A DNA stretch of 64,000 bases from the NCBI GenBank assembly GCA_965218095.1, contig OZ244587.1, positions 1,920,001-1,984,000 on the forward strand, given 5' to 3'. The stretch comes from Candidatus Poribacteria bacterium (GTDB taxonomy: Bacteria; Poribacteria; WGA-4E; PCPOR2b). This document shows positions 1 to 37,977 of the stretch, in pieces. A program made the position numbers and the translations under genes. A model generated the notes under the pieces. It did no database searches. It had not been told where the DNA came from and was given only the letters and a program-made list of their open reading frames with translations. Position 1 is the stretch's first letter. Every line of letters starts with the position of its first letter.

Positions 1-951
1 CCGAATAAACAGCAATGCGAGGACTAGCCCCATGAGAAATATCGGAATTCCCCCAAGGACTACCGGTGTGAAATGACGGAGGCTTCCATGAAGTGCGGCG
101 AAAAGAAGCGCACTGAGCAGGATGCCTTTCGCGCGACCAAATCGACCGGCGAAAGCGATATATGCAATGCCCCGGAATAGCATTTCTTCCCCCACTGGCA
201 TCAAAATTAACATAACAAAAACGAGGAGAACTACTGAACTATCTCCTAAGCTTTGCGGCATGCTGTTCAACCATTGCTGCTGTTCCTGCTGAATCAACGC
301 CTCCAGTGCGTTTGCAGATATGTGTCGGCTGAACCAGCCTATCCCCTGCGGGAGACCTTCCGAAATGAGAGCTAAAACAGGTGCGAGCAATAACGGCAGC
401 CCAAAACTGTTAAGGTCGCCATTATATCTCAGCCCTATAGTCGCAACAGTCCTCCGGTAGCGCACGGTTATGCAGAAAAAACACACACAAATGAGTATAT
501 TTCCGATAATCAGCTTAACAATCCAAAAGTGAGGCACTGAGAGGATGTACATATCCGGCGGTGTCTTCAGCGCCTCGAATCCTTCCGCAATCCACAGTGC
601 GATAGAACGTACAATTTCCTGAAACAAGAAGGTCACGATGAAAATGACAACCGGGTCTGACGGCTCAAAATAGCCGTGCAGCCTCGCAACGGTTTCTTCT
701 GCTGTATAAATCTGATTACAGCGTCCACATTTGCGTGACCACGCGTGGTTATCCCGTTGACATTTGGGGCAGATCCAGGTAAGTATGGGTATCTGATTCC
801 AAAAGTAGATTGGGAAGAATGCCTTTGGAATGAGAAAGGTGCCCAAAGCCCAAAGCACAGATCGCTCTTGCAACTTACTATCATGGTATACCCAAAGGGC
901 GAGTCCACCGTTTATAAGCCCAATTACAAACAGCCCGTATACCTCTTGCAT
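1..951 (-). CDS. CPBP (CAAX/Abi) family intramembrane glutamic endopeptidase with an N-terminal RanBP2-type zinc finger; runs off the window edge
   Basis: Not in the ORF track. Manual translation gives a stop-free frame from ATG 951 (or TTG 957) to base 1, with EEMLFRG and FAALH CPBP motifs, several TM segments and WICPKCQRDNHAWSRKCGRC. Confidence 0.85.
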   Translation of the reverse strand, partial: MQEVYGLFVIGLINGGLALWVYHDSKLQERSVLWALGTFLIPKAFFPIYFWNQIPILTWICPKCQRDNHAWSRKCGRCNQIYTAEETVARLHGYFEPSDPVVIFIVTFLFQEIVRSIALWIAEGFEALKTPPDMYILSVPHFWIVKLIIGNILICVCFFCITVRYRRTVATIGLRYNGDLNSFGLPLLLAPVLALISEGLPQGIGWFSRHISANALEALIQQEQQQWLNSMPQSLGDSSVVLLVFVMLILMPVGEEMLFRGIAYIAFAGRFGRAKGILLSALLFAALHGSLRHFTPVVLGGIPIFLMGLVLALLFIR

Positions 952-19830: not shown

Positions 19831-22485
19831 TCACAGTGGTAGAGCAAAGTGAAACACCGAACCACTTCCAGGAACGCTCTCCGTCCATATCCCCCCGCCA
19901 TGTTGCAGCAAAATGTGCTTGGCAATCGACAGTCCGAGCCCCGTGCCTCCGCTTGCATCCCGATCAGAGATCGGGGCCATCTCACGCGAGCGCGCCTTAT
20001 CCACCCGGTAGAACCGTTCAAAAATTCGCGGCAGCGCGTCGGAGGGGATGCCGATTCCGGTATCTCTCACATGTACAATGACCTCAGATTCGCTGGCTTC
20101 TGCAAACACCGCGATGCAACCTCCCGCCGGCGTGTACTTAATCGCGTTGTCAATCAAGTTGACCAGAACTTGTCCAATAAGCCGTTTATCCGCAAGCAAG
20201 ACGGGCAGGTCGTCAGACGCCTCCCATTCAAACGTCAGATTGGATTCATCGAATGCGGCGCCAAAGAGGGTCAATATGGTATCTTGAAACTCTTTTATCT
20301 CGCAGAGTTCCAATTTAAGCACCACCTCTCCGGATTCAAGTCGAGACAAATCAAGGAGATCCGAGACCAATTGCGAAAGTTGTGACGACTGCTGGAGAAT
20401 CTTCTCCAAAAAGCGTTGGCTTGCGTCGGTGTCGTCCAAAGCGCCATTTAGCAGTGTTTCCGCATATCCCTGAATCGAGGTCAGCGGCGTGCGCATTTCG
20501 TGAGAAACGTTGGCGACGAAATCTACGCGAATCTGTTCTAATTTCCGCAACTGGCTTACATCGTGGAGACTTACCAGATACTCCCTACCAACAGGCACAA
20601 TAGTAATCTCTGTCTCGCCTTCCGTTATTCCCGCGAGGTTGATTTCCGCAAAGGCGGCTTCTTTTGTATCCGTTGCCTGCTCCAGGAGATGTCGCAAGGC
20701 TGGGGTATGGATGATTTCAATCAATGAACGCCCCTGGTAGTGAACAGGCAGATCCAGCATTGTGACCGCCGCCGAATTCGCATCAGTGATAGCAAACTGC
20801 TCATCAATCAGAAGGACACCCTCGATCATCTTCGATAGGATACTGTCCATCCGGTCGCGTTCCTGAGAGATTTCATGAATCTGCCCCTCAATGCGATCTG
20901 CCATCTGATTGAAATGGCGGGACAATTGCTCCAGTTCACCCGATGGTGTAACGGGAACTCGTGAGGTGAATTCACCCTCTGCAATTAATCTTGTGGCCTG
21001 GGTCAAGTCCCGAATCGGCTTCGTGGTAACTTCTGTGGTAATGATGCTGAACAAGATCGCGAAAACAAAGCCTGCACCGATTGCCAACAGTAGAAGCCAC
21101 CTGAGTTAATCGGTAGCCGTCTCAATTTCCTTCATTGGCAGCGCAACCCGACAGACGCCTATCAACTTCACTTGACGGCGGACCGGCAATGTAAGGTAAC
21201 GTAAGTTTGTTTTTACAGTAGTGCTATATCGATTGGCGATACCAGTCTCCCCCGACAGGGCGGTTTGTACCTCTGGACGATTTCGGTGGTTGTCCATTGC
21301 TCGTAAACTCTCCCCATCGCGCTCCGTATCTCCCCATACAATTCCGTCGCGCCCAATAAAGGTTAGACGCACATTACCCGTCATTCCCAGCCTATCCACA
21401 AAATTGTCTATGATGTCGTAACTATGGTAGATCTTAGAATTAATGGTACATTTGAATAATATCGTGAAGTGTGGTTTCGGGGTGATATTCTCGGTATCGC
21501 TTGATATTGGCAAAATCGTGTTCAATCGGATTGTAATCTGGAGAATAAGGCGGTAGGAACATCAGACTCGCTCCTGAAGCCTCTATCAACTCTCGGGTCC
21601 GAGGTGTTTTGTGAAGCCGCGCATTATCAAGGATTACAACCTGTTTTGAAGTCAAACGTGGACATAACTGTTCAGCTAACCAGTCATTGAAATCTACCGC
21701 TTTGCAGCTCCCTTTGAACACCCGTGCCGCAATAAGTGTCGCTGTCCGGGTGCGTTGGCTTGAGATAAGTCCAAAGACTTTTTCCCCTTTGGGTGCATAC
21801 CCATAACGTCTATAACTTTCGTCTCGAAACCCACTCTCATCGACATAAACAAAAGACTTACCAGAGGCTTTCACTTGTGCGAGTTGCTGAAGATACGCTT
21901 GTCGTTTTTCAGCGCATTGCTCCTTATATCCGAGACTTTTTTTTCGGGTGCAACCGATATTTTTCAGCCCATACCCGATACAAGACTTTGACACACCAAA
22001 ATGAGCTGCGCGCTCGGCGTAGGTCTGGTCTGGAAAATCAGCGACATGTTTTCTCAGCGCATCGGGGTCAAGGGTTCGCGGGCGACGGGGCCCTGGTTTC
22101 TGACGTTTGAGCGGGTCAGGCGCATTCAACCACTTATACAGCGTTGAGCGGGCGACGGAAAAACGGCGGCTCGCTTCGGTCTTGCCACCGCCAGCTACGA
22201 TAAAATCTAAGACGCGTTTGCGTAAATCTAAAGAATAGGCCATAATAACTATAGGATACCAGCAATATAAGAAAATGTCTACTTATTTATAGGGTTCGCC
22301 AGAAATGTGTCAGGCAGCATCTCCAGCAGAAATTCTCGTGTCAGATTTGCCTGTACCTTTAATTCCGTCGTGATTTGCTCACTCAGGTTCTGCTTCAATG
22401 AATGATCCAGATAACCATATATCGCCAGCAAAATGACCAGCACAATCCCCATATAATACAAAATCAATTTAGTTCGGATACTCAT
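19831..22485 (-). pseudogene. phoR: PhoR-type sensor histidine kinase disrupted by IS630 and an in-frame TAA (21106-21108)
   Basis: N-terminus MSIRTKL at 22485, periplasmic 'MDNHRNRPEV', HAMP-PAS, 'DFVANVSHEMRTPLTSIQGYAETL', 'RIFERFYRVDKARSR..GGTGLGL'. Confidence 0.88.
21423..22281 (-). mobile_element. IS630-family element (transposase 21440-22243)
   Basis: MAYSLDLRKRV, YVDESG, ILDNARLH, LPPYSPDYNPIE; TA at both ends. Confidence 0.92.
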
Positions 22486-22659: not shown

Positions 22660-23428
22660 TATGATAGTTCAACAAAGTTGGCGTTGGGTGTGAACAACAA
22701 CAGCGGCTCGATCATCTGAAAGTTGGTCGGAAGAAATTGCCTTCGGACAGGGCTTACGCTTGAAGCGGTTGAACATCTAAAGCAGGCCGAAGCGGAGGAG
22801 ATAGATAAAATGGAGCCGCGAGCATTGTTAATCCTGGCTTACTCACATGCGCTTCCAACAAATAAATGATGCCCAATCGCACGGATTAAAACCAGAGTTC
22901 AAACGTGAACGAAGGCTGGCGGCGTTAGGGGAGAAGGAAGTGGAAAACATCCTTGAAATTCTGTCTGAACGTTCTCGCCTCCAAAAAGACGCAATGCAGA
23001 TACGAATCGACAAGAGAACTATCGCTGTTCCTGTACTCCTTGACGCGCTAGGCAAAGCCCAGTATCAAAACGTCCAAGGTGACATCATTGATATGTTGTA
23101 TGAAATCGGTCTTGAGGCGATTGACGCAATCGTCGCTGCGGTTCAGGACCTCAACACGTCAACTGCCGTGAAGATCGTGCTTGTTCGGCTAATCGGAAGG
23201 ATTGACGGGGGACGGGTTACTGGCGATTCAGAGACAATTCGCAATAGCACCGACGATGCCGGATTGGAGATGGAAATCAGCACAGCTCTCTACAAACTTG
23301 GGCAGACGGAATATCGGTCGGTGGTGGACTTACAACTGACCTACAACCTGGACCAATATTTTCAACACACAGAACAGAATGAACTGGTTAAAAGTGAGTT
23401 GAGACGTCTTCTTTTTGGGCTAGAATAA
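22660..23428 (+). pseudogene. HEAT-repeat protein, degraded at the 5' end
   Basis: Helical repeat-like ORF 22847-23428; upstream coding-like sequence is broken by stops and frameshifts. Confidence 0.45.
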
Positions 23429-23429
23429 G

Positions 23430-25061
23430 TCAAACTAATCGTTTATCCCTCAGATCCACTGTCAGATCCTTCACTTCCCGAATTATCTCTTTTTCTTTTT
23501 GGGCGAGTCCGTCAAAAAGTGCGGGAACAGTGACATCTTTCGTCTTTTCCGCGTAACGATCCGGAGTGATTCCCAGATATTTAACGGAAAGGTAATATTC
23601 TGGGTCTTGCCTCGTCACGGCGCCATCAAGAATATTTCCAGTTTCCCGCTTTCCATAGCTAACAGTGTAGCACCTGCCTGTTTTCTGGTTGACAACCGTA
23701 TACCCGCCCTCATCAATAGTCTCGTTCCAGCATTTCTCAAAACCACTTGCCGGCATCCTATCTCTCAGGTCTTGAGCGGAACGGATAACGACCTTTTCAT
23801 GAATTGGCTCTCTTATGACAATCAAGCCATCGTCTTTCACCCGCTGCGGGGATGGACCTTGCATCAGATACACGTTATCTACAGTATACACTACACCATT
23901 TTTTATGCCCTTTGCCAGGTTGAGATGTCTCTCGACAATATCCTCATTGAAGGGATGGAGCTGGTATTGGCCATTCGCGCTTAAAACCCACCGTAATTTT
24001 CTTCGGTATTCGATATCAGCAAACCTGTCATTTGGGAGGGGTACCGCTACCTTTAGATCGTAACCCACAAACAGGTCATTTGTCAGATTTAATCGAGATT
24101 CTCGTGTATCTGCCAAAAGCGTTAATCCGGTCTGACTTTTGGAGAGGACTCGACCAATGAGGCTACCCCGTCGTAATGCGCGGATTTCTTGAGAGATTAA
24201 TGCCAGCGTTTGCGGGGCCATATCCTCAACCATAATCTTATGTTCCCACCTTGTGCCTCTCTCGTGGGCAAGGAGTTGAAATTGTTGGGTGTCACCATCT
24301 GACCGAATATACCCGAGTACGGTCCACGGGTCAAAGGTGGTGCGGTATCCATCCGCTGCTCGCGAAACTGCACCCGCGAGGACGCAATCCCGTCTTTCAT
24401 ATCGTGAATATACCTCAAATTGAAATTCCAAATGGTTAAACGATTCTAATGTTTCTGAGAGATCTCTGGCAAACTCATCTCCACTGGGAAAGGGTTTAAA
24501 AATCGCTGCTGTTTGGGAAGGGTGGTTCAGGGCATCAAGAAATTTTCCGATTGGAATCCCCTCTATACCAAATCCCTGACCGAAGATCTTGGTTTTGGTT
24601 TTAAAAGGCGGTTGCCGCAAAAATAAATCGCGTTGCGAGACAAGCTGTAATGCCGGGTCTTCAGACAAATCTTCTATGGTAGAGGCATCTCCGAAAACCC
24701 TTTCTTGCAGCGTATTATCTACGCTTTTAGTCAGCTCGGTGCCTTGTTTGAGCTCCGCAAAATGGACGATGTCATTTACGGTATAACGAAGTGGCGCGCT
24801 GGAAGAGAGGTTGTCATAGTTAGAACGGTGGAACCGTATTCTTGGCTTAATCCGAAGGACAGGGATGAGACCGTAATCTCTCAATAAAGCATACAAAGTG
24901 ACTGTATAAGATTCGGCATGTATTTTTCGTTCTAAAATTCCATTTTGTGCAGGAATTTCCCTGGCTAAACCGTCTCCTCGAATTAAGTGTTCCTGGACGG
25001 AATCGCTGTCATTTCCAAAGATGATCATTCGGTGTTCTTCTCTGCTATCGTCTATCATCAA
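23430..25061 (-). CDS. Putative VTC/CYTH (triphosphate tunnel metalloenzyme)-like protein, possibly two domains
   Basis: LERKI...VTLY...KPRIR..Y...FAELK...YSRYERR...RTTFD...EHK...SKSQTG occur in the same order as VTC-domain motifs. Confidence 0.55.
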   Translation of the reverse strand: MMIDDSREEHRMIIFGNDSDSVQEHLIRGDGLAREIPAQNGILERKIHAESYTVTLYALLRDYGLIPVLRIKPRIRFHRSNYDNLSSSAPLRYTVNDIVHFAELKQGTELTKSVDNTLQERVFGDASTIEDLSEDPALQLVSQRDLFLRQPPFKTKTKIFGQGFGIEGIPIGKFLDALNHPSQTAAIFKPFPSGDEFARDLSETLESFNHLEFQFEVYSRYERRDCVLAGAVSRAADGYRTTFDPWTVLGYIRSDGDTQQFQLLAHERGTRWEHKIMVEDMAPQTLALISQEIRALRRGSLIGRVLSKSQTGLTLLADTRESRLNLTNDLFVGYDLKVAVPLPNDRFADIEYRRKLRWVLSANGQYQLHPFNEDIVERHLNLAKGIKNGVVYTVDNVYLMQGPSPQRVKDDGLIVIREPIHEKVVIRSAQDLRDRMPASGFEKCWNETIDEGGYTVVNQKTGRCYTVSYGKRETGNILDGAVTRQDPEYYLSVKYLGITPDRYAEKTKDVTVPALFDGLAQKEKEIIREVKDLTVDLRDKRLV

Positions 25062-25125
25062 TGGACACCTCCACTATTGAAAATCAGTAATATATTGAAA
25101 TCGAGAGAAATTATACCATGAAAAT

Positions 25126-25872
25126 CTAAAATGATAAAGTCAAGTTAACTTCTTTCCATAAATTCTGATATGACTTTGAGTCCATGGATTCGGGTGCAAA
25201 AACTATAACCGGCTCTCGCTCAATTCCCATTTTTTCGACGTGTGATAGATAAGGAATAGAACTCTGTAAAACACCATCGAATTCCTTCAACACTGTAGCC
25301 ATGAATTCATTGTGCATCTTTTTGCGCCTGTCAGCCATCGAAAAGAAAGTGTAAAACTTACCTGTGTCGTATTTATTCTTTTTGAGGAAAGAGAGTAATT
25401 GCTTATGACTTCGCACGGACAATGTCGTCGGAATCAGGGGAACAAGGATGTAATCGGCGGCGTTGAATATATTCTCTGCCAGGAGGCTGATGGTGGACGG
25501 ACAGTCCAGAATAATCAAATCATATTCGTCTCGGAGCGGATTCAAGATTTTATCCAGTCGCTGTTTTGAGCGCTTCACTTTATCAAAAGTGACAGCTAGA
25601 TTACGATGCGTGAAATCCGCTGGCAGTAAATCTAACTTTTCATAATCCGTGCCTTTGATACTTCTTTCAATGTGCTTCCCGCCCTTAATGAACCCCTTTG
25701 CTCGGGACTTGAGCTTGGGTTTGACTCGAAAATAATATGTTGTCGAACTTTGCGGATCCAGATCGCAGATGAGGGTTTTAATACCTGCCTGCGCTGCCAG
25801 AAAAGATAAATTGACGGCTGCCGCGGTTTTTCCGACTCCACCCTTATTACTATAGACTGCAAGCGTTTTCAT
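25126..25872 (-). CDS. ParA/Soj-family ATPase (no parB nearby)
   Basis: KGGVGKT, DLDPQ, IILDCP; start overlaps the CHAD stop (TGATG). Confidence 0.92.
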   Translation of the reverse strand: MKTLAVYSNKGGVGKTAAAVNLSFLAAQAGIKTLICDLDPQSSTTYYFRVKPKLKSRAKGFIKGGKHIERSIKGTDYEKLDLLPADFTHRNLAVTFDKVKRSKQRLDKILNPLRDEYDLIILDCPSTISLLAENIFNAADYILVPLIPTTLSVRSHKQLLSFLKKNKYDTGKFYTFFSMADRRKKMHNEFMATVLKEFDGVLQSSIPYLSHVEKMGIEREPVIVFAPESMDSKSYQNLWKEVNLTLSF

Positions 25873-27440
25873 CAAACCACCTTTCCCTTTTTGGCGGTGA
25901 ACAGTTCCCGACATAACTTTTTATTTGAAGGCGATGTGAAATCAGTGAAAATATTCGAAAATGAGTCCTTCAAGATCTGGCTTTCTTCGTCCAGCTTTCC
26001 AATCAGGCTGCCGATTGCCAAAATGGTGCTTCTGGACTGGGGGTCGATTATCGTCAGTTCTTCAGCGATGTGCGTGAGATATTCCTTCTGAACACGCAGA
26101 TTATTATAGTCGCCCAGGTTATCCTGCAATCTCTTTAATTGCTTAATCAAGATCGAGATTTTATCGTCGGGGAAAAGACTGGAAAAGAACTCCATCAGAT
26201 ACCGTAGTTTTTTACATTCGATTCTCAATTCGTGTAGTCGTCCATCCGTCGCGTTTTCAAGAATTTGGGCGCCAGTTTTTACAACCATCCGGTATACTTT
26301 ATAAATTCTTCTGCGTGCCAGGTCAATTGCTGGCACGTCAGCATTAGGTGCCCTTGGGGAATTCTCCGGCGGTTGGTTTAAGAATGTTTCCCAATCTTCC
26401 AAGATTTCTGAATATTGTTCGGAATTCAAGCCATTAGTGACGTCTTCTAACGCCTTAGACCGTTTTCCTCGTAAAAAGTCGAACAAGGGATCGATTTCGT
26501 CGCGCAAGGTCGCGGGGAGCATCGCTTTGTAGGCTTTCTCTGTAAGGAGGTAGACATCTAAATCCCGCAACAGATTTGAAAGTTTACCCAGTAAAGAAAA
26601 ATCTCTCCGAAATCGGTCGGTTGTTTCTGTTGGAAAGACATCTTTAATCTGACTTAAAGCGGAACGGGTACGGCGAATAGCGACGCGAAAATCATGCAAA
26701 AACTCTGTGTCGAGGTCTGCCTTGATGTAATTTTCATTGATTTTGATGGCTTTCAATAGAAAGCGCAGAATCACTTTAGCCGCTTCATCCGCACGCATAT
26801 CAGGGTCAAGTTGTAGCCTTAATTTTAAAGAATAATCGCCAGGCGTTTTATTGACGGTCTCAAGGGCCTTGAAATATATCTCATCTGTTTTGATTGTCGT
26901 AAATCCCAGTTCCTCAAGTTGGTTGACCAACTTTCGATAATATTTCGGATACCCCCTGACAGGTTTCAAGCATAGATGGGCAGCCAACATCGGCGTATGT
27001 GCTTGATGGGGCGGTCGAATTTCTTCATAGACGAATCGCACCACGGTTTTTTCATCTTGATTCAAAATGCGATAAGAAGTTGATTGAGAATGTATTTCAG
27101 CGAGTTTCAGAAGCGCCCGCATTTCTATGATTGGTGCCAACAACTCTTTGAATTCGCCATCAGGAAAATCCCATAGGAAAACAGGTTGAGAAGTGATTTT
27201 GCCATTCTGGATAATCGTGAGTCCGGACAATCGGCGCAGAATGAGATCGCTTTCGGAGGCATACAACACAAGCAATTTATTGAATAGCCGCCAGTCAAAT
27301 GTATCGTAGATGGCGAAACTCGCCGCAGTGAATGCCTCTCTTCTGACTAAATAATGGTTCGCCAATTCGCTAATGATTCGCCCCTCATCATACCCATCTG
27401 GTAACCTGAGTGGGACTTCATGAGGCTCTGTTTTCACCAT
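25872..27440 (-). CDS. CHAD-domain protein with degenerate CYTH-like N-terminus (polyphosphate-binding family)
   Basis: YDTFDWRL; EFLHDFRVAIRRTRS; RDLDV; LHELRIECKKLRY; LQDNLGDYN. Confidence 0.92.
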   Translation of the reverse strand: MVKTEPHEVPLRLPDGYDEGRIISELANHYLVRREAFTAASFAIYDTFDWRLFNKLLVLYASESDLILRRLSGLTIIQNGKITSQPVFLWDFPDGEFKELLAPIIEMRALLKLAEIHSQSTSYRILNQDEKTVVRFVYEEIRPPHQAHTPMLAAHLCLKPVRGYPKYYRKLVNQLEELGFTTIKTDEIYFKALETVNKTPGDYSLKLRLQLDPDMRADEAAKVILRFLLKAIKINENYIKADLDTEFLHDFRVAIRRTRSALSQIKDVFPTETTDRFRRDFSLLGKLSNLLRDLDVYLLTEKAYKAMLPATLRDEIDPLFDFLRGKRSKALEDVTNGLNSEQYSEILEDWETFLNQPPENSPRAPNADVPAIDLARRRIYKVYRMVVKTGAQILENATDGRLHELRIECKKLRYLMEFFSSLFPDDKISILIKQLKRLQDNLGDYNNLRVQKEYLTHIAEELTIIDPQSRSTILAIGSLIGKLDEESQILKDSFSNIFTDFTSPSNKKLCRELFTAKKGKVV

Positions 27441-27581
27441 GAAAGCTCCTTGAAATTCGGTTGATTGTCTGTCTTTCTACTCAGCCCTCAACTTACGACG
27501 ATTTTTGCATGTCTGCACACCCTCATTTTCGATATGGGCTTCCCTCTTATGATTGATTTGATAAGGGGTAAGATTCTACTA

Positions 27582-28042
27582 TTGTGATTTCTCTTTGTCA
27601 GCAGATTTTGTGACACGTAAAGTGTCCTATGGTGCGTACGCAATGCGACTGGGATTCTTCAAATTTATACCAATGCCCCTACTGGGGGATGATTGGCTCC
27701 GAGGCATGGAGAAAAGTGCACCCAAATCGGCTCTGACATTGAGGGATTTCGATTTGCCACAAAAAAGCTGAGAGAATGTCAAAATTTTGTAACATCCTCA
27801 AATTATACTTTTGTGATTTCTCTTTGTCAACAGATTTTGTGACAAGAAAGTGTCCTATGGTGCGTACGCAATGCGACTAGGATTCTTCAAATTTATACCA
27901 ATGCCCCTACTGGGGGATGATTGGCTCCGAGGCATGGAGAAAAGTGCACCCAAATCGGCTCTGACATTGAGGGATTTCGATTTGCCACAAAAAAGCTGAG
28001 AGAATGTCAAAATTTTGTAACATCCTCAAATTATACTTTTGT
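27582..28042. repeat. Tandem duplication of about 229 bp in the divergent CHAD/TonB-receptor promoter region
   Basis: Copies start at 27582 and 27811; near-identical, with a few substitutions and a 1-bp indel. Confidence 0.95.
27777..27794 (+). promoter_or_regulatory. Pho-box-like direct repeat (second copy at 28005-28022)
   Basis: TGTCA-N6-TGTAA with 11-bp spacing, upstream of the TonB-dependent receptor. Confidence 0.6.
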
Positions 28043-28155
28043 TTGTCATGATCAAGATGCAAGATTCAGACTCAGTTAGCGTTGTAGGTCGAGATTCCGA
28101 TCTCAACAGAATTAAAGAAACAGTTTCATACTTACTTGAAAGAAGAAAGACATCA

Positions 28156-30966
28156 ATGAAGTGGTTGCTTTTGTGTGCCTTTGTTGCGCGGCTTTGCGTG
28201 CCATTAACACTCACTGCGCAACAAGCCGGAAGAATTGAAGGGATGATTATCGATCAAGCGACGGAAGCGCCGATAGCAGGTGCAATTGTCATATTGAGCG
28301 CCACCAAACAGCGCGTATCAACGGATGGGGACGGGATGTTTATTCTCGAAGTACCCTTAGGCATGTACAACATCAGCGTCAGATTTCCTTTCTATCTCAC
28401 GCAGACAGTATCTGGAATTGAGGTCACCGAAGCACAGCCGACGCAGACCCTCCGTGTCGTCCTCATACCTCAAGTAATTAAGCTAGATCCTGTACACCTC
28501 CCCCTCCTTTTGAGTCAATCGAGTGAAGTCGGTCTTTTGGAGAAACGGCGACAGAGCTTTGTGGTTGAATATAGTATCAGCACGGAATTGATGGGCAAGC
28601 TCCCCGTTTCGGATGCCGGGGACGCGCTGAAACGGGTCACTGGCATCAGCATCGGCGGCGGGCAATATGTTTATGTACGCGGACTTGGAGAACGCTACAG
28701 TAACACTTTATTGAACAGTATCCAGATTCCAAGCCCTGAGCCAAATCGTCGGGTTGTGCCGATGGATATCTTTCCCGTCAATCTCCTAGAAAGTCTCCAG
28801 ACCGTCAAGACTTTTTCTCCCGATCAGCCGGGCAACTTCGCAGGCGGTTCAGTACAAGTTTTCACCAAAGACTTCCCGGAAGCCTTCACCACGTCGCTAT
28901 CAATGTCCATCAGCTTCAACACAGAAACGACGGGAAAGGATGTGCTGGCATATCCAGGTGGGGATTTAGACGCGCTTGGGTTTGATGACGGTACACGAGC
29001 GCTCCCCGATATTATTGCAGATAACGTGGAAGACACCCCCATCCGCGAACGAGGGCGTTTTACAACGAGCGGATTTACACCGAAAGAAATTCAGACATTT
29101 GGCAGAGCCTTTGACAACACCTGGTCGCCACAAAGGGATGAGGCGCAAGCCAATCAGGGTTACAAGTTCAACATTGGGAACACCACCCGACTCGCCGGAA
29201 AAGAATTCGGATATCTCGGCGTGATCTCGTACGGCAATGGTCATAGTTATCGCGCAGAAGAAGAACGCAATGCGTTTAGACTCGGTTTGAATGATGAACT
29301 CACGCCGGTGACTGCATATCTGGTGGAACGAAGCGCAAACGATGTCAGTTGGGGCGGGGTGCTGAACACAAGCATGCGCTTTTTGCCCGGACACAAGATG
29401 AGTGTGAGGACGCTCTATAGCCATACCGCCGAGGATGAAACGCGAACTTGGGAGGGATTCAATGCAGACCGTAATACCGACATGCGAAGTTCGCGTCTGC
29501 TCTATGTTGAGCGCGGACTCTTCTCGGGGCAACTCGCCGGCGACCACGGATTCAGATCGGAACTGGAAGCCGCGGAAGAAAGCGATGCAGAATCTGGTTT
29601 CAAACCTGCGCCAACACTGTCCTGGCGTTTGACGTTCTCTCGCGCAACGCGGAACGAGCCTGACACCCGTGAGATGGTCTATGAAAAACGCGGCGATGAC
29701 TGGTTCTTCCGTGACATTACCTAGAGCGGCAGTCGGTTCTTCTTTGATCTGAAGGACGACGACATCAGCAGCAGACTAGATTGGTCAATGCCGTTGGGTT
29801 CAAAAGGATTATTCAAAACAGGTGGAATGTGGCGCGATCGGGACAGAACCTTTGATGCCCATCGATTTCGGTTTCTGCCATTTGACAACGTTGACCGACT
29901 TGTAGATCTTTCCGTGCCGCCGGAAGCACTTTTTCAGATCGAGAATATCGCCCCTCGTGTTTTTGAACTTCGCGAGTCTACGCGGGCAACAGACAATTAC
30001 CTCGCTGCCCACGATGTGTGGGCTGGCTATGCCATGATCGATTTGCCTTTGTCAAAGAAGTTTCGTTTGACAGCCGGCGCTCGGCTGGAAGTCTCCGATC
30101 AGAACGTCACAACCTTTGACCCTTTCTCCCCTCAGGCAACGCCGATTGTTGCGGATTTGGACACAACCGATATTCTGCCAAGTCTGAATTTGACATACCG
30201 ACTGACAGACCAGATGAATCTTCGCCTGGCGAGGTCACGCACGGTGACACGACCAGACCTTCGGGAGCTTGCGCCCTTCGAATTTACGGACTTCGTCGGC
30301 GGCCGGACGATTTTCGGCAATCCAAACCTTGAGCGAACCTTGATTGACAACTACGATCTCCGCTGGGAGGTCTTCCCGGAATTGGGCGGGGTCGTGGCAA
30401 TCAGTGGGTTCTATAAAAAATTCCACAAACCGATTGAGCAGATTATCCAACCGGCGGCGGAAGTTCGGATTACCTACGAAAACGCAGAAGCTGCACGCAA
30501 TTATGGGGTTGAATTAGAATTACGCCAAAACTTGAGCGTCCTCTATTCGAGACTTCAGCACTTCTCTGTCAACACCAATGTCGCTTTCATCTCTTCGAGA
30601 GTTGAGTTGCCTGACGTTGGTATTCAGACCTCTTCCGAGCGTGCGCTTCAAGGTCAGTCGCCCTATGTTGTGAACGCAACCCTCGGTTATGACAACCCTG
30701 ATTGGGGAATAACCGCCGCACTTGCTTATCACGTCTTCGGGCATTGGATTGCAGAGGTAGGAAACCATGGCAATCCGGATGTGTTCGAGACGCCGCGTTC
30801 CCAATTGGACACGACATTTGGGAGACAACTGCTCCCATTTCTTCTTTTCAGTTTTTCAGCAAAGAATTTGCTGAATCCTGACGTCACCTTAGAACAAGGT
30901 GGCGAAACTTACGTGCACTATCGCACAGGTCGGACATTTTCGTTCGGCCTGAGTTACAGTCTCTGA
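28156..30966 (+). pseudogene. TonB-dependent receptor with internal TAG at 29722-29724
   Basis: Carboxypeptidase-like N-domain, plug 'YVYVRGLGERYSNTLLN', 'RPDLRELAPF..GNPNL', barrel end FGLSYSL; both ORFs are in one frame. Confidence 0.9.
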
Positions 30967-34407: not shown

Positions 34408-35102
34408 ATGTCATCCAAGCAAATCGAATACCCAATAGTTTCTCAAATCGTCTGCGAATATCTGGGTTCGCTGTTCTTGGTCATGGCGGCGATTTCACCG
34501 ATTATTCTTTTCAACCAGATTTTGGACGCTGGCATTGCTTTGGCGGTGCTCGCTGACGCCCTCGCCGTGGGGTTTATCCTCTTCGTCCTCATTGAAATGT
34601 TCGGCCCAATCAGCAGCGCGCATTTCAATCCCGCCGTGAGCATCGCCATGGCGGTCAGCGGTCAAATGAGATGGGGCGAGCGCCAATCTACATTCTCGCG
34701 CAGATTACCGGTGGCTTGACAGGGACGGTTTGTTCCCATCTCATGTTCTATCATAAAATCCCCGGGTTGACTGCTATTTCTGAGGTGACCCGATCTGGCG
34801 GGAACTATTTCTCGGAAATCTTGTGTACTTTTATCCTCGTTCTTGCTATTTTCCTTCTTGTACAGCATCAATCAGATAAAATCTTCCTCGTCGTTGGTCT
34901 GTTAGTCGGGGGAGAATTAATTGCAACATCAAGCACAATGTTCGCCAACCCACAAGTCACTCTGGCGCGGATATTCACCTATTCGGCAGCGGGTGTAAAG
35001 CCTCTGGATGGGATGGTATTCATCCTGATGGAGGTCATCGGCGCCGGGCTTGCCGTTTTTGTTTTCAAAGCAGTGAATCGAAACAGAAAACTGATTGAGT
35101 AA
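34408..35102 (+). pseudogene. MIP/aquaporin (AqpS-like), frameshifted near 34675
   Basis: AHFNPAVS in ORF 34408-34719 and STMFANPQVTLAR in ORF 34671-35102. Confidence 0.85.
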
Positions 35103-36849: not shown

Positions 36850-37977
36850 ATGCAATCTCATTTAGAAGAAAGCCTACAACAGGATATCGACCTGATTCGC
36901 AATAAGGTCATCGAAATGGGTGGTTTGGCTGAGAGTGCGCTAAAGACCAGTCTGGACGCGATTGAGAATAACGACCGCCAATTGGCGTATGCGGTGATCT
37001 TGAAAGACCACTATATTGATGAATTAGAGGAGGAACTGGAATCGCTCTGTCAGAAATTCCTGATTAAGCACCTGCCTGTCGCGGGTCAAATGCGCTTTGT
37101 TTATTCCGTCATCAAGATCAACACTGAATTGGAGCGCGTCGGCGATTATGCGAAAGCCATTGCACGGCGATTTTTGACTGTCAGTTCTTTAAACGCTCAG
37201 GTGTCCTACCCTAAGCTCACCGAAATTGTCAATCTGTCGATTCCGCTGCTCCGTAACGCCCTGCAAGCCTTCGCCGAAGGTAACGCAGAATTGGCGAAAG
37301 CAACAAGGGAGAAGGAAAAGGAAAAAACGATAGACACCCTGCGCTACGAGATTCATCGTGACTTAATCCAACTGCATAGTGATGGTGGATTACCATCAGA
37401 GGCGCTCGTGCCATTGATGACGATTGTCGATCGCTTGGAGCGCGTCGCCAATCAGGCCAGCAATATTTGTGAGGAAGTCCTGTACATGCGTACCGGTGAA
37501 GATCTGAGACATGACTACCAGCAGGTGCTGCGTGTACTTTTTGTCGCCGAGCGTGACGCCTGCCGGGGTCAGATGGCCGTCGGTATCGGTAACGGCCTTG
37601 GGTTGAAAAGGGTCCTGTTCAGCAGCGCCGGCGTTGCGCCCATCTCTGTGGACGCCAAAACCGTGCAATTCATGGCGAAAAAAGGGATCGATATTTCTGC
37701 ACAGACTTCCAAATATCTAAGCCAAACCTTAGATCCCAAAGATTATGAGGTCATTGTATTACTTTCGGAAGAAGCAGAAAGGGCTTTCCCACCAACGCCC
37801 TTGAAGACGGTCCAAATCAACTGGGAGATTCAAGATCCATCAAGACTTGAAGAGTCTGAAGCGGAGGTGGAAGCTGCTTATGAGAAGACATTTCGATTTT
37901 TAGATACACACATTCGAGATCTGGTTCAGGCGATTCTCGGTGATGATATTAAGAAGGAGGAGACCGATGTTCAATAA
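36850..37977 (+). CDS. phoU: PhoU fused to a low-molecular-weight phosphatase/ArsC-like domain
   Basis: Two PhoU repeats (ELERVGDYA; LERVANQASNI), then 'VLFVAERDACRGQMA...SSAG...GIDISAQTSK...WEIQDP'. Confidence 0.9.
   Translation: MQSHLEESLQQDIDLIRNKVIEMGGLAESALKTSLDAIENNDRQLAYAVILKDHYIDELEEELESLCQKFLIKHLPVAGQMRFVYSVIKINTELERVGDYAKAIARRFLTVSSLNAQVSYPKLTEIVNLSIPLLRNALQAFAEGNAELAKATREKEKEKTIDTLRYEIHRDLIQLHSDGGLPSEALVPLMTIVDRLERVANQASNICEEVLYMRTGEDLRHDYQQVLRVLFVAERDACRGQMAVGIGNGLGLKRVLFSSAGVAPISVDAKTVQFMAKKGIDISAQTSKYLSQTLDPKDYEVIVLLSEEAERAFPPTPLKTVQINWEIQDPSRLEESEAEVEAAYEKTFRFLDTHIRDLVQAILGDDIKKEETDVQ

Follow-up and report, generated by a model that had tools for sequence, protein, structure and literature searches.

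How bacteria place and inherit their polyphosphate granules is an open question, and a locus in a genome of Candidatus Poribacteria raises it in a concrete form: could an orphan ParA-type ATPase, encoded directly behind a CHAD-domain protein, be part of a machine that places such granules? The locus lies in a window of 64,000 nucleotides, by which we mean the whole stretch of DNA that was analysed, taken from positions 1,920,001-1,984,000 of a single 6.35-Mb contig (OZ244587.1); coordinates refer to the window unless stated otherwise. A sequence-only reading of this DNA had described three co-oriented genes within a decaying Pho island. It had assigned all three to a system in which the CHAD protein would be the cargo adaptor, ParA would space the granules, and the third protein would make or remodel polyphosphate. 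The three genes were confirmed as open reading frames (ORFs) that run head to tail on the minus strand (product lengths in amino acids, aa):

25872..27440, minus strand: CHAD-protein gene, 522 aa, with an N-terminal tunnel-fold domain and a C-terminal CHAD domain
25126..25872, minus strand: gene for an ATPase of the ParA/MinD family, 248 aa from the ATG that overlaps the CHAD stop codon
23430..25061, minus strand: third gene, encoding a 543-aa orphan protein with two tunnel-fold domains (from its model)

We lean, with moderate confidence, towards the view that the CHAD-ParA module positions polyphosphate granules, with ParA as the motor and the CHAD protein as the cargo adaptor. As checks on its proposal, the sequence-only reading had named conservation of the linkage, co-occurrence with polyphosphate genes, the phylogeny of the CHAD-linked ParAs, their possible grouping with Soj, and modelling of the complex. 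Their outcomes are given below; for the CHAD and ParA genes, the earlier reading is well supported as a hypothesis. It can also be sharpened, as alignments and models suggest that the docking element would be the N-terminal, apparently dead tunnel domain of the CHAD protein.

Conservation of the CHAD-ParA gene pair

The stop codon of the CHAD gene and the start codon of the ParA gene meet in a TGATG junction (ggtttgatgaaa), already pointed out in the sequence-only reading, in which one base is common to TGA and ATG. The mechanical ParA ORF begins at an upstream ATG at 25914 and has 262 aa. Because the ATG at 25872, which is preceded by GGAAAGGTGG, overlaps the CHAD stop and aligns with residue 1 of the ParA orthologues, we set the gene at 25126..25872.

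Among 41 Poribacteria genomes that served as the sample at the level of the order, ParA relatives at 70-100% identity were present in 10, and two more genomes gave only matches of 31-33%. A full-length CHAD protein was found in exactly the same 10 genomes, with the two genes side by side by coordinates. The wider scan used one genome per bacterial or archaeal species, and the best 80 of 239 ParA relatives (45-83% identity) were kept. In 47 of these 80 loci, ParA is immediately preceded on its own strand by a full-length CHAD relative (in two of the 33 unlinked loci the upstream DNA is too short to judge), and stop and start overlap by 4 or 1 nucleotides (nt) in 24 of the 47. The linked loci represent about ten phyla, with Poribacteria, Desulfobacterales, Desulfobulbaceae, Geopsychrobacteraceae, Chloroflexota, Zixibacteria, Calditrichota, Lentisphaerota (a Victivallales bin), KSB1, Ignavibacteriota and Gammaproteobacteria (including symbionts of lucinid clams) among their sources; most are metagenome bins, whose taxon labels are only as reliable as the binning. 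CHAD-ParA is a conserved two-gene module that has been kept across phyla.

To survey the neighbourhood, three genes on each side of ParA were clustered, representatives were annotated, and these were then searched in all 80 loci. At the 47 linked loci, ParA has CHAD and polyphosphate genes as its neighbours: PPK1 (9/47), PPK2 (10/47), a CYTH protein (7/47), a SixA-like histidine phosphatase (11/47) and a Nudix protein (2/47). At least one of these five occurs within approximately 6 kb in 22 of the 47 linked loci versus none of the 33 unlinked ones. Since related loci share neighbourhoods, these numbers do not stand for independent events.

A quick maximum-likelihood tree was built from 86 rows, namely the 80 loci, the window's own ParA, four more Poribacteria and a MinD as root. 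On it, the label "CHAD upstream" needs only three changes. One of them sets off an unlinked clade of 31 rows (support 97), almost all of which are Chitinophagaceae; ParA of this clade (L085-L126, 45-48% identical) sits in a conserved uvrB - ParA - esterase - polA context. The other two changes concern single Chloroflexota rows, L064 and L080. When three genomes of the Chitinophagaceae clade were searched for CHAD, two had a short CHAD only (frames of 264 and 276 aa) and the third had none. In these sequence comparisons it is the CHAD-linked state that is widespread, whereas the Chitinophagaceae clade appears to have lost the partner and changed its job.

Two unusual forms of the CHAD gene were seen among the relatives. 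In most Poribacteria relatives it consists of two adjacent ORFs of approximately 160-190 aa each (L023 8684-9653, L024 3770-4838, G003-G024), so that the Pfam profile is covered in its first half by one ORF and in its last third to half by the other; many genomes show this split, which therefore looks like a genuine two-gene arrangement and not like a sequencing error. In a Chloroflexota bin (L057 4460-6744), CHAD lies in three frame-shifted pieces, the last of which runs into the ParA frame to give a 416-aa ORF that is either an assembly error or a fusion.

The two proteins and their predicted contact

The 522-aa protein divides into an N-terminal domain (residues ~5-200) and a C-terminal CHAD domain (~205-518). 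Pfam CHAD (PF05235) matches residues 224-455 at E 3.4e-55 with 187.9 bits, against a cut-off of 25.6. In the AlphaFold2 (AF2) model, which has a predicted local distance difference test score (pLDDT) of 90.5, residues 203-518 align with the CHAD domain of C. tepidum Q8KE09 (CtCHAD; PDB 3e0s, 6qv7, 6qva). The match to 6qv7 has Z 37.2 and a root-mean-square deviation (rmsd) of 1.7 over 315 of 316 residues at 38% identity, and the two four-helix bundles superpose on the solved structure. A profile of the ParA-linked proteins matches CtCHAD at E 2e-102. The C. tepidum parent protein also has 522 aa, of which the structure covers residues 208-522. As far as the available text goes, CtCHAD binds polyphosphate in the nanomolar to micromolar range, was solved in complex with a polyphosphate 9-mer, and loses polyphosphate binding when H253, R256, R260 and R296 are mutated; the CHAD part alone was studied, and the N-terminal 207 residues and the neighbouring genes fall outside that text (PMC6537752).

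Both the AF2 model and the comparison of these residues draw on an alignment of 30 sequences. It contains the window protein and 29 proteins from linked loci; a clean ORF of 495-560 aa was present in 35 such loci, six of which were near-duplicates and were left out. With the offset of 4 to CtCHAD numbering that follows from the structural alignment (203..518 to 207..522), H249, R252, R256 and R292 of the window protein, all invariant in the 30 sequences, equal CtCHAD H253, R256, R260 and R296. Because the matching binding residues are invariant, polyphosphate binding by the CHAD domain of this subfamily rests on experiment, one carried out with CtCHAD and not with the window protein.

The N-terminal domain (residues 5-197) was modelled as an eight-stranded tunnel fold, with HpAC1, AtTTM3 and SaTTM matching at Z 12.0-12.8 (rmsd 3.7-3.9, 155-175 aligned residues). 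This domain is visible to fold search only: Pfam CYTH gave no match to the 522-aa protein even at E 1, and the profile of the 30 ParA-linked proteins gave no CYTH, YgiF or other TTM structure at E 1. ExExK is the motif of the CYTH/TTM family. It is not on the first strand of the domain, which reads VPLRL (residues 9-12 being VPLR), and no glutamate of the domain is invariant in the 30 sequences. From sequence and model together, we read it as a tunnel domain that has lost catalysis.

Modelling of the CHAD protein together with ParA, another check named in the earlier reading, gave scores of 0.69, 0.69 and 0.70, whereas the highest score among three controls was 0.00. Contacts agree to at least 91% between the runs, and the partner has a pLDDT of 84 or more. 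Of 157 solved complexes, 116 reach the pass mark, as do 2 of 215 mismatched pairs; with our own alignments as input, these counts hold only approximately. A solved structure of a tunnel domain bound to a ParA protein is not known to us, so it seems unlikely that the prediction passed by reproducing one. The predicted contacts are F48, R49, V50, I72-D76 and D81 on ParA, and R124, D129-T132 and V161-Y164 on the partner, all of the latter in the N-terminal domain. Three of the only five invariant residues of this domain, K131, G163 and Y164, are at the predicted interface. On the ParA side, residue 49 is Arg in 45 of the 47 linked ParAs and residue 73 is Lys or Arg in all 47, whereas neither holds for any of the 31 ParAs of the CHAD-less clade. 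This decay of contact residues exactly where the partner has been lost is the strongest single argument for the interface, and it is independent of model confidence. The modelling thus supports binding of ParA by the CHAD protein via its N-terminal domain.

These data bear on the possibility that the tunnel-fold plus CHAD protein is an enzyme or a signalling protein, such as a triphosphatase or adenylate cyclase, which ParA regulates or by which ParA is regulated. The TTM fold of the N domain (Z 12-12.8) fits this idea. So does E. coli YgiF (PDB 5a60/5a61), which has the same TTM plus CHAD architecture (full-length Z 18.2) and whose tunnel domain, according to the available text of PMC6537752, is an active short-chain polyphosphatase. 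In addition, the accessible part of PMC6416229 treats an Acidithiobacillus CYTH-CHAD protein encoded beside ppk and parA as a cyclase. However, at an rmsd of 18.6 the domains of YgiF match those of the window protein but their relative arrangement does not. Moreover, VPLRL takes the place of ExExK, Pfam CYTH and TTM matches are lacking at E 1, the N domain has no invariant glutamate, and its invariant K131, G163 and Y164 are instead placed in the predicted ParA interface. We therefore consider an enzymatic or signalling role of the 522-aa protein doubtful.

The ATPase itself matches Pfam AAA_31 at E 9.5e-37 with 127.1 bits (cut-off 27) and CbiA with 52.8 bits (cut-off 25.4). Its deviant Walker A motif, KGGVGKT, occupies residues 10-16, with K10, G11-G14, K15 and T16 invariant in 30 orthologues. 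Equally invariant are D37 and D39, which we take to be the switch I / Walker A' aspartates, and D123, presumably the Walker B aspartate. Judged from this alignment, the catalytic motifs are intact; no conserved C-terminal amphipathic helix is evident in it. The best NCBIfam model, ParA_partition, reached 81.8 bits versus a cut-off of 180, and RepA 71.2 versus 348. Soj structures match over part of the protein only (E 1e-13 to 1e-16), whereas linked ParA orthologues from other phyla are 44-83% identical to it. Because of the sub-threshold partition score and the weak Soj match relative to these orthologues, the ParA is, on sequence grounds, not a Soj orthologue.

We also looked at the other partition-type genes of the genome. 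It has minCDE, and its single ParB_N match lies at contig positions 1,788,184-1,788,477, 130 kb outside the window, and contains an in-frame TAG; no parB was found beside ParA or anywhere else in the window, in agreement with what had been read from the sequence. A partition-type ParA gene (G000:C1:3752900-3754900; L129 2400-4389) is cut in two by an IS982-like transposase. Because of this cut and the stop codon in the sole ParB_N match, the classical chromosome partition pair may have decayed in this genome. It could then be asked whether the window's ParA is simply an ordinary chromosome or plasmid partition ATPase whose adjacency to CHAD is incidental. In favour of this, no other intact non-MinD ParA-type gene was found in the genome, the other partition copy and the ParB_N match being disrupted as described. 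Furthermore, in the available parts of PMC6416229 and PMC10892726 the figures label the neighbouring gene of Acidithiobacillus as a partition protein. Against this stand the adjacency in 47 of 80 loci from about ten phyla, often with overlapping codons, the lack of a parB beside this ParA, the family scores and Soj comparison above, and a complex prediction that passes its controls. An ordinary partition role is, in our estimate, very improbable.

Proposed granule placement and the alternatives to it

The linkage, the family assignments, the folds, the conserved polyphosphate-binding residues and the predicted interface can be combined into the following mechanism. The 522-aa protein would bind polyphosphate via CHAD and so would sit on granules, on the cargo side, and its N-terminal tunnel domain, which has no catalytic ExExK, would dock on ParA beside the switch-I region. 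The motor would work in analogy to that of other orphan ParA systems: dimers of ParA carrying ATP would attach to a large polyanionic surface, most probably that of the nucleoid, and hydrolysis of the ATP would be set off by the partner on the granule, leaving a gradient of ParA by which granules would be spaced or partitioned. Localisation to granules in this organism, DNA binding, stimulation of the ATPase and an effect on granule position would all be expected from this analogy, and spacing of granules on the nucleoid by the pair is our guess. The proposal of an orphan ParA that acts on polyphosphate with CHAD as its partner on the cargo side is backed by linkage, by neighbouring genes, by the finding that the ParA is not a Soj orthologue, and by complex prediction. 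Taken together, sequences and models make the CHAD-ParA pair a strong candidate for granule-placing machinery.

The closest comparison is with McdA/McdB. In both cases an orphan ParA-type ATPase without ParB is encoded beside a gene for a protein that sits, or here would sit, on a cytoplasmic storage or metabolic body, and the proposed logic, an ATPase on a matrix and an activator bound to the cargo, would be the same. In contrast to that system, polyphosphate granules would be the cargo here, a folded protein of tunnel-fold plus CHAD architecture takes the place of an McdB-type partner, and the partner's gene precedes that of the ATPase and overlaps it; matches to McdA structures reach only E 3e-8. 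In Synechococcus, granule organisation is independent of McdA, the only ParA-family ATPase there, according to the accessible text of PMC13081873. A second comparison is with AlgP of Pseudomonas aeruginosa, where the subject is likewise how polyphosphate granules are spaced along the nucleoid. AlgP binds DNA, resembles histone H1 and has no ATPase, whereas the module described here would supply one (PMC13052382, available part).

In the available part of the same 2025 review, AlgP is the only protein listed for granule spacing, and energy use in localisation is left undecided (PMC13052382); a 2026 paper, in the portion available, calls the mechanism of granule organisation undefined in E. coli and Caulobacter (PMC13081873). 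Already in print is an Acidithiobacillus folD-ppk-parA-CHAD cluster, in which ppk1, parA and a CYTH-CHAD gene are conserved next to one another within the genus; we liken it by its published description. In the accessible text of these papers, the ATPase is described as serving chromosome or plasmid partition and no role in granules is put forward, and the wide distribution, the interface and the coupling are not part of what they describe (PMC6416229, PMC10892726). Full-text literature on CHAD together with ParA, with subscription journals outside its coverage, yielded no paper that proposes a granule-positioning ParA. For the open question of granule placement and inheritance, the pair thus gives a concrete handle, made up of a defined gene pair, a predicted interface with named residues, and an existing crystal structure of the cargo-binding domain.

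Several observations weigh against a positioning role. The module is patchy, with 10 of 41 related genomes having it. The tree is only a quick one with provisional branch order, and its root, the MinD of this genome, is a very long branch. L064 and L080 lie within the linked clade and have CHAD elsewhere in the genome (open frames of 527 or 579 aa), and an entire ParA clade of 31 rows works without a CHAD partner. The complex was modelled 1:1 from shallow alignments of 30 rows and with no ParA dimer, so that a dimer-specific contact could be missed. According to the accessible text of a 2026 paper, CHAD deletions in several organisms do not substantially disrupt granule formation (PMC13081873). 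Finally, none of the 41 genomes from the order, this one included, gave a match to the middle domain of PPK1 (PF02503), while it was detected in control genomes. The genome has one PPK2 above the equivalog cut-off, two PPX/GppA genes, two CYTH genes and a single CHAD gene. Because PPK1 was not found, polyphosphate synthesis here would rest on the single PPK2 or on an unknown enzyme, and the granules themselves are putative.

The pair might also act on granules without a nucleoid role, as a regulator of their assembly or turnover instead of a positioning machine: the ATPase could switch the CHAD protein on or off granules, control its oligomerisation, or recruit PPK2 or PPX. ParA/MinD ATPases also act as assembly or localisation factors, of which BcsQ and FlhG are types, and this breadth of the family favours a regulator; BcsQ models are among the weak NCBIfam matches of our ParA. 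The ATPase is, moreover, very basic, with a calculated isoelectric point (pI) of 9.5 and a Lys/Arg-rich stretch at residues 44-70 (9 basic residues, 1 acidic), and might bind polyphosphate rather than DNA. In addition, dimers and tetramers of CtCHAD shift to higher oligomers with long polyphosphate (PMC6537752, available text). On the other hand, the linkage and interface evidence fits a regulator and a positioning machine equally. We regard the regulator as the less probable of these two possibilities and as rather unlikely overall, while granule positioning by ParA and its CHAD adaptor is the reading towards which we lean.

The third gene and the surroundings of the locus

The inclusion of the third gene in the system did not hold up. 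Of the 41 genomes from the order, 30 have a homologue with 57-72% identity, and the gene is present in none of the 80 ParA loci. In two genera (g5 and g11) that have the pair in every genome searched, no homologue was found, and in another genome (G005) homologue and pair are both there on separate contigs. Because of these three observations, the third gene is a local neighbour of the pair only in this genome and lies outside the conserved module. Its product was also considered as a partner of ParA, and this was dropped given its presence at 0 of 80 loci. The distance to the ParA stop, which the sequence-only reading had put at about 65 bp, is 64 bp from the TTG start (543 aa) or 67 bp from an ATG at 25058 (542 aa) that agrees with the MVDD start of the homologues.

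Of the VTC/CYTH-like character ascribed to the third protein, a predicted fold of the triphosphate-tunnel kind is what remains; nothing of it was seen at the level of sequence. The protein matched no Pfam or NCBIfam family at E 1 and no PDB sequence better than E 0.7, and the ESM Atlas gave no usable match. In an exhaustive profile search of 1.84 billion proteins, its family came to 31 clusters at 50% identity, of which about five are full length; the best 120 of 265 word-index matches are without a Pfam domain, and the few named ones are hypothetical proteins of Poribacteria. The protein is a nearly Poribacteria-only orphan.

Its AF2 model (pLDDT 64) is good in the C half (~328-543) and mostly below 50 in the N half (~4-312). 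For the C half, matches were obtained to the tunnel domain of YgiF at Z 10.5 (rmsd 3.5, 160-161 aligned residues) and to RNA triphosphatases at Z 8-10, both in a Foldseek re-look and in a Foldseek-independent search of 48,161 representatives. Among the 48,161 representative chains, the best matches of the N half are the tunnel domains of Vtc4/Vtc2 (3g3q, 5iiq), at Z 7.0, rmsd 4.9-5.0 and 212-213 aligned residues, a Z that unrelated models also reach and that comes from the poorly modelled region. The N half has most of the invariant charged residues (many Arg, Lys and Glu), which alternate along predicted strands: RIKPRIRFHR (70-79), FKTKTK (153-158), YSRYERRD (218-225) and HERGTRWEHK (266-275). 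On the model, this charge pattern is what is expected of a tunnel lining.

The neighbours of third-gene homologues elsewhere point to polyphosphate. In one family (f2), the homologue lies just downstream of a CHAD gene (present as two halves) and a ROK glucokinase gene in 6 of 6 genomes; in another lineage (g7) it comes directly after a CHAD gene; and in a third (f4) it follows a SixA-like phosphatase in two of the three loci with an annotated upstream gene. Its modelled folds suggest that the third protein is probably a tandem tunnel-fold enzyme that acts on tri- or polyphosphate. Since most tunnel-fold enzymes are hydrolases, a hydrolase is the default for its fold and a polymerase the bold reading, and polyphosphate synthesis by this protein is a guess. 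Any likeness to yeast Vtc4 would lie in the N half, which is large, has many charged residues on its strands and finds its best structural matches, at the low Z given above, in Vtc4/Vtc2; the protein differs in having no sequence similarity to Vtc4, no SPX domain and no membrane part. That it is a bacterial counterpart of the Vtc4 polymerase, moved here beside the CHAD-ParA granule module, strikes us as a long shot. If it were true, polyphosphate would be made in a phylum with PPK1 in 0 of 41 genomes, and granule synthesis, coating and ATP-driven placement would be encoded in one 4-kb block. The locus thereby also raises two side questions on Poribacteria, namely what makes polyphosphate without PPK1, and what role is played by an orphan tandem tunnel-fold protein that recurs beside CHAD genes.

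The Pho island described in the sequence-only reading was recovered together with signs of its decay. The phosphate genes around the three genes comprise a PhoR-like kinase, a PhoU fusion, pstS/C/A/B/B (with two pstB genes) and a PhoB-like regulator. A TonB-dependent receptor (28039-30966) is split at 29724/29788 into a Plug part and a barrel part, a fragment of a MIP channel spans only profile positions 87-222, the PhoR-like kinase is preceded by a separate 139-aa ORF, and an IS630 transposase adjoins the decaying genes; these signs lie at 28039-30966, 34671-35102, 19831-21525 and 21440-22243. The GC content of the three genes (23400-27900) is 42-46%, versus 50.0% for the genome and 48.1% for the window. 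Horizontal arrival of the three-gene block was dropped as an explanation of function, GC being uninformative on function.

Four RNA libraries of one sponge study contain short contigs with at least 99% identity to parts of the locus. They cover 23420-23807, 24044-24419 and 24741-24990 in the third gene, 26240-26609 and 27241-27460 in the CHAD gene, and also the upstream region; at a depth of 2-5, no contig over ParA was found in these four libraries. Given this depth, possible DNA carry-over, and the fact that such contigs cannot show a transcript, they settle neither transcription nor silence. Three matches to promoters were seen, scored on a sigma-70-like consensus only, which may not be the promoter type of this phylum:

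27802..27830, minus strand: promoter match upstream of the CHAD gene (TTGACA, 17-nt spacer, TATAAT; 12/12)
27573-27601, minus strand: second promoter copy (10/12), from the same tandem duplication as 27802..27830
25110..25137, minus strand: promoter-like match at the end of the ParA gene (TTATCA, 16-nt spacer, TATAAT with TG)

By its sequence, the match at 25110..25137 could drive the third gene separately. The first two matches belong to an intergenic tandem duplication of 228-229 bp upstream of the CHAD gene (27573-28042), with 196 nt at 99% identity and 48 nt at 90%; both copies include one of the sigma-70-like matches as well as a hairpin with a T run behind it, and the ORF of the TonB-dependent receptor begins within the second copy. 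Just upstream of pstS, PhoU and a low-molecular-weight phosphotyrosine phosphatase (LMWPc) are fused in one 375-aa ORF (36850-37977).

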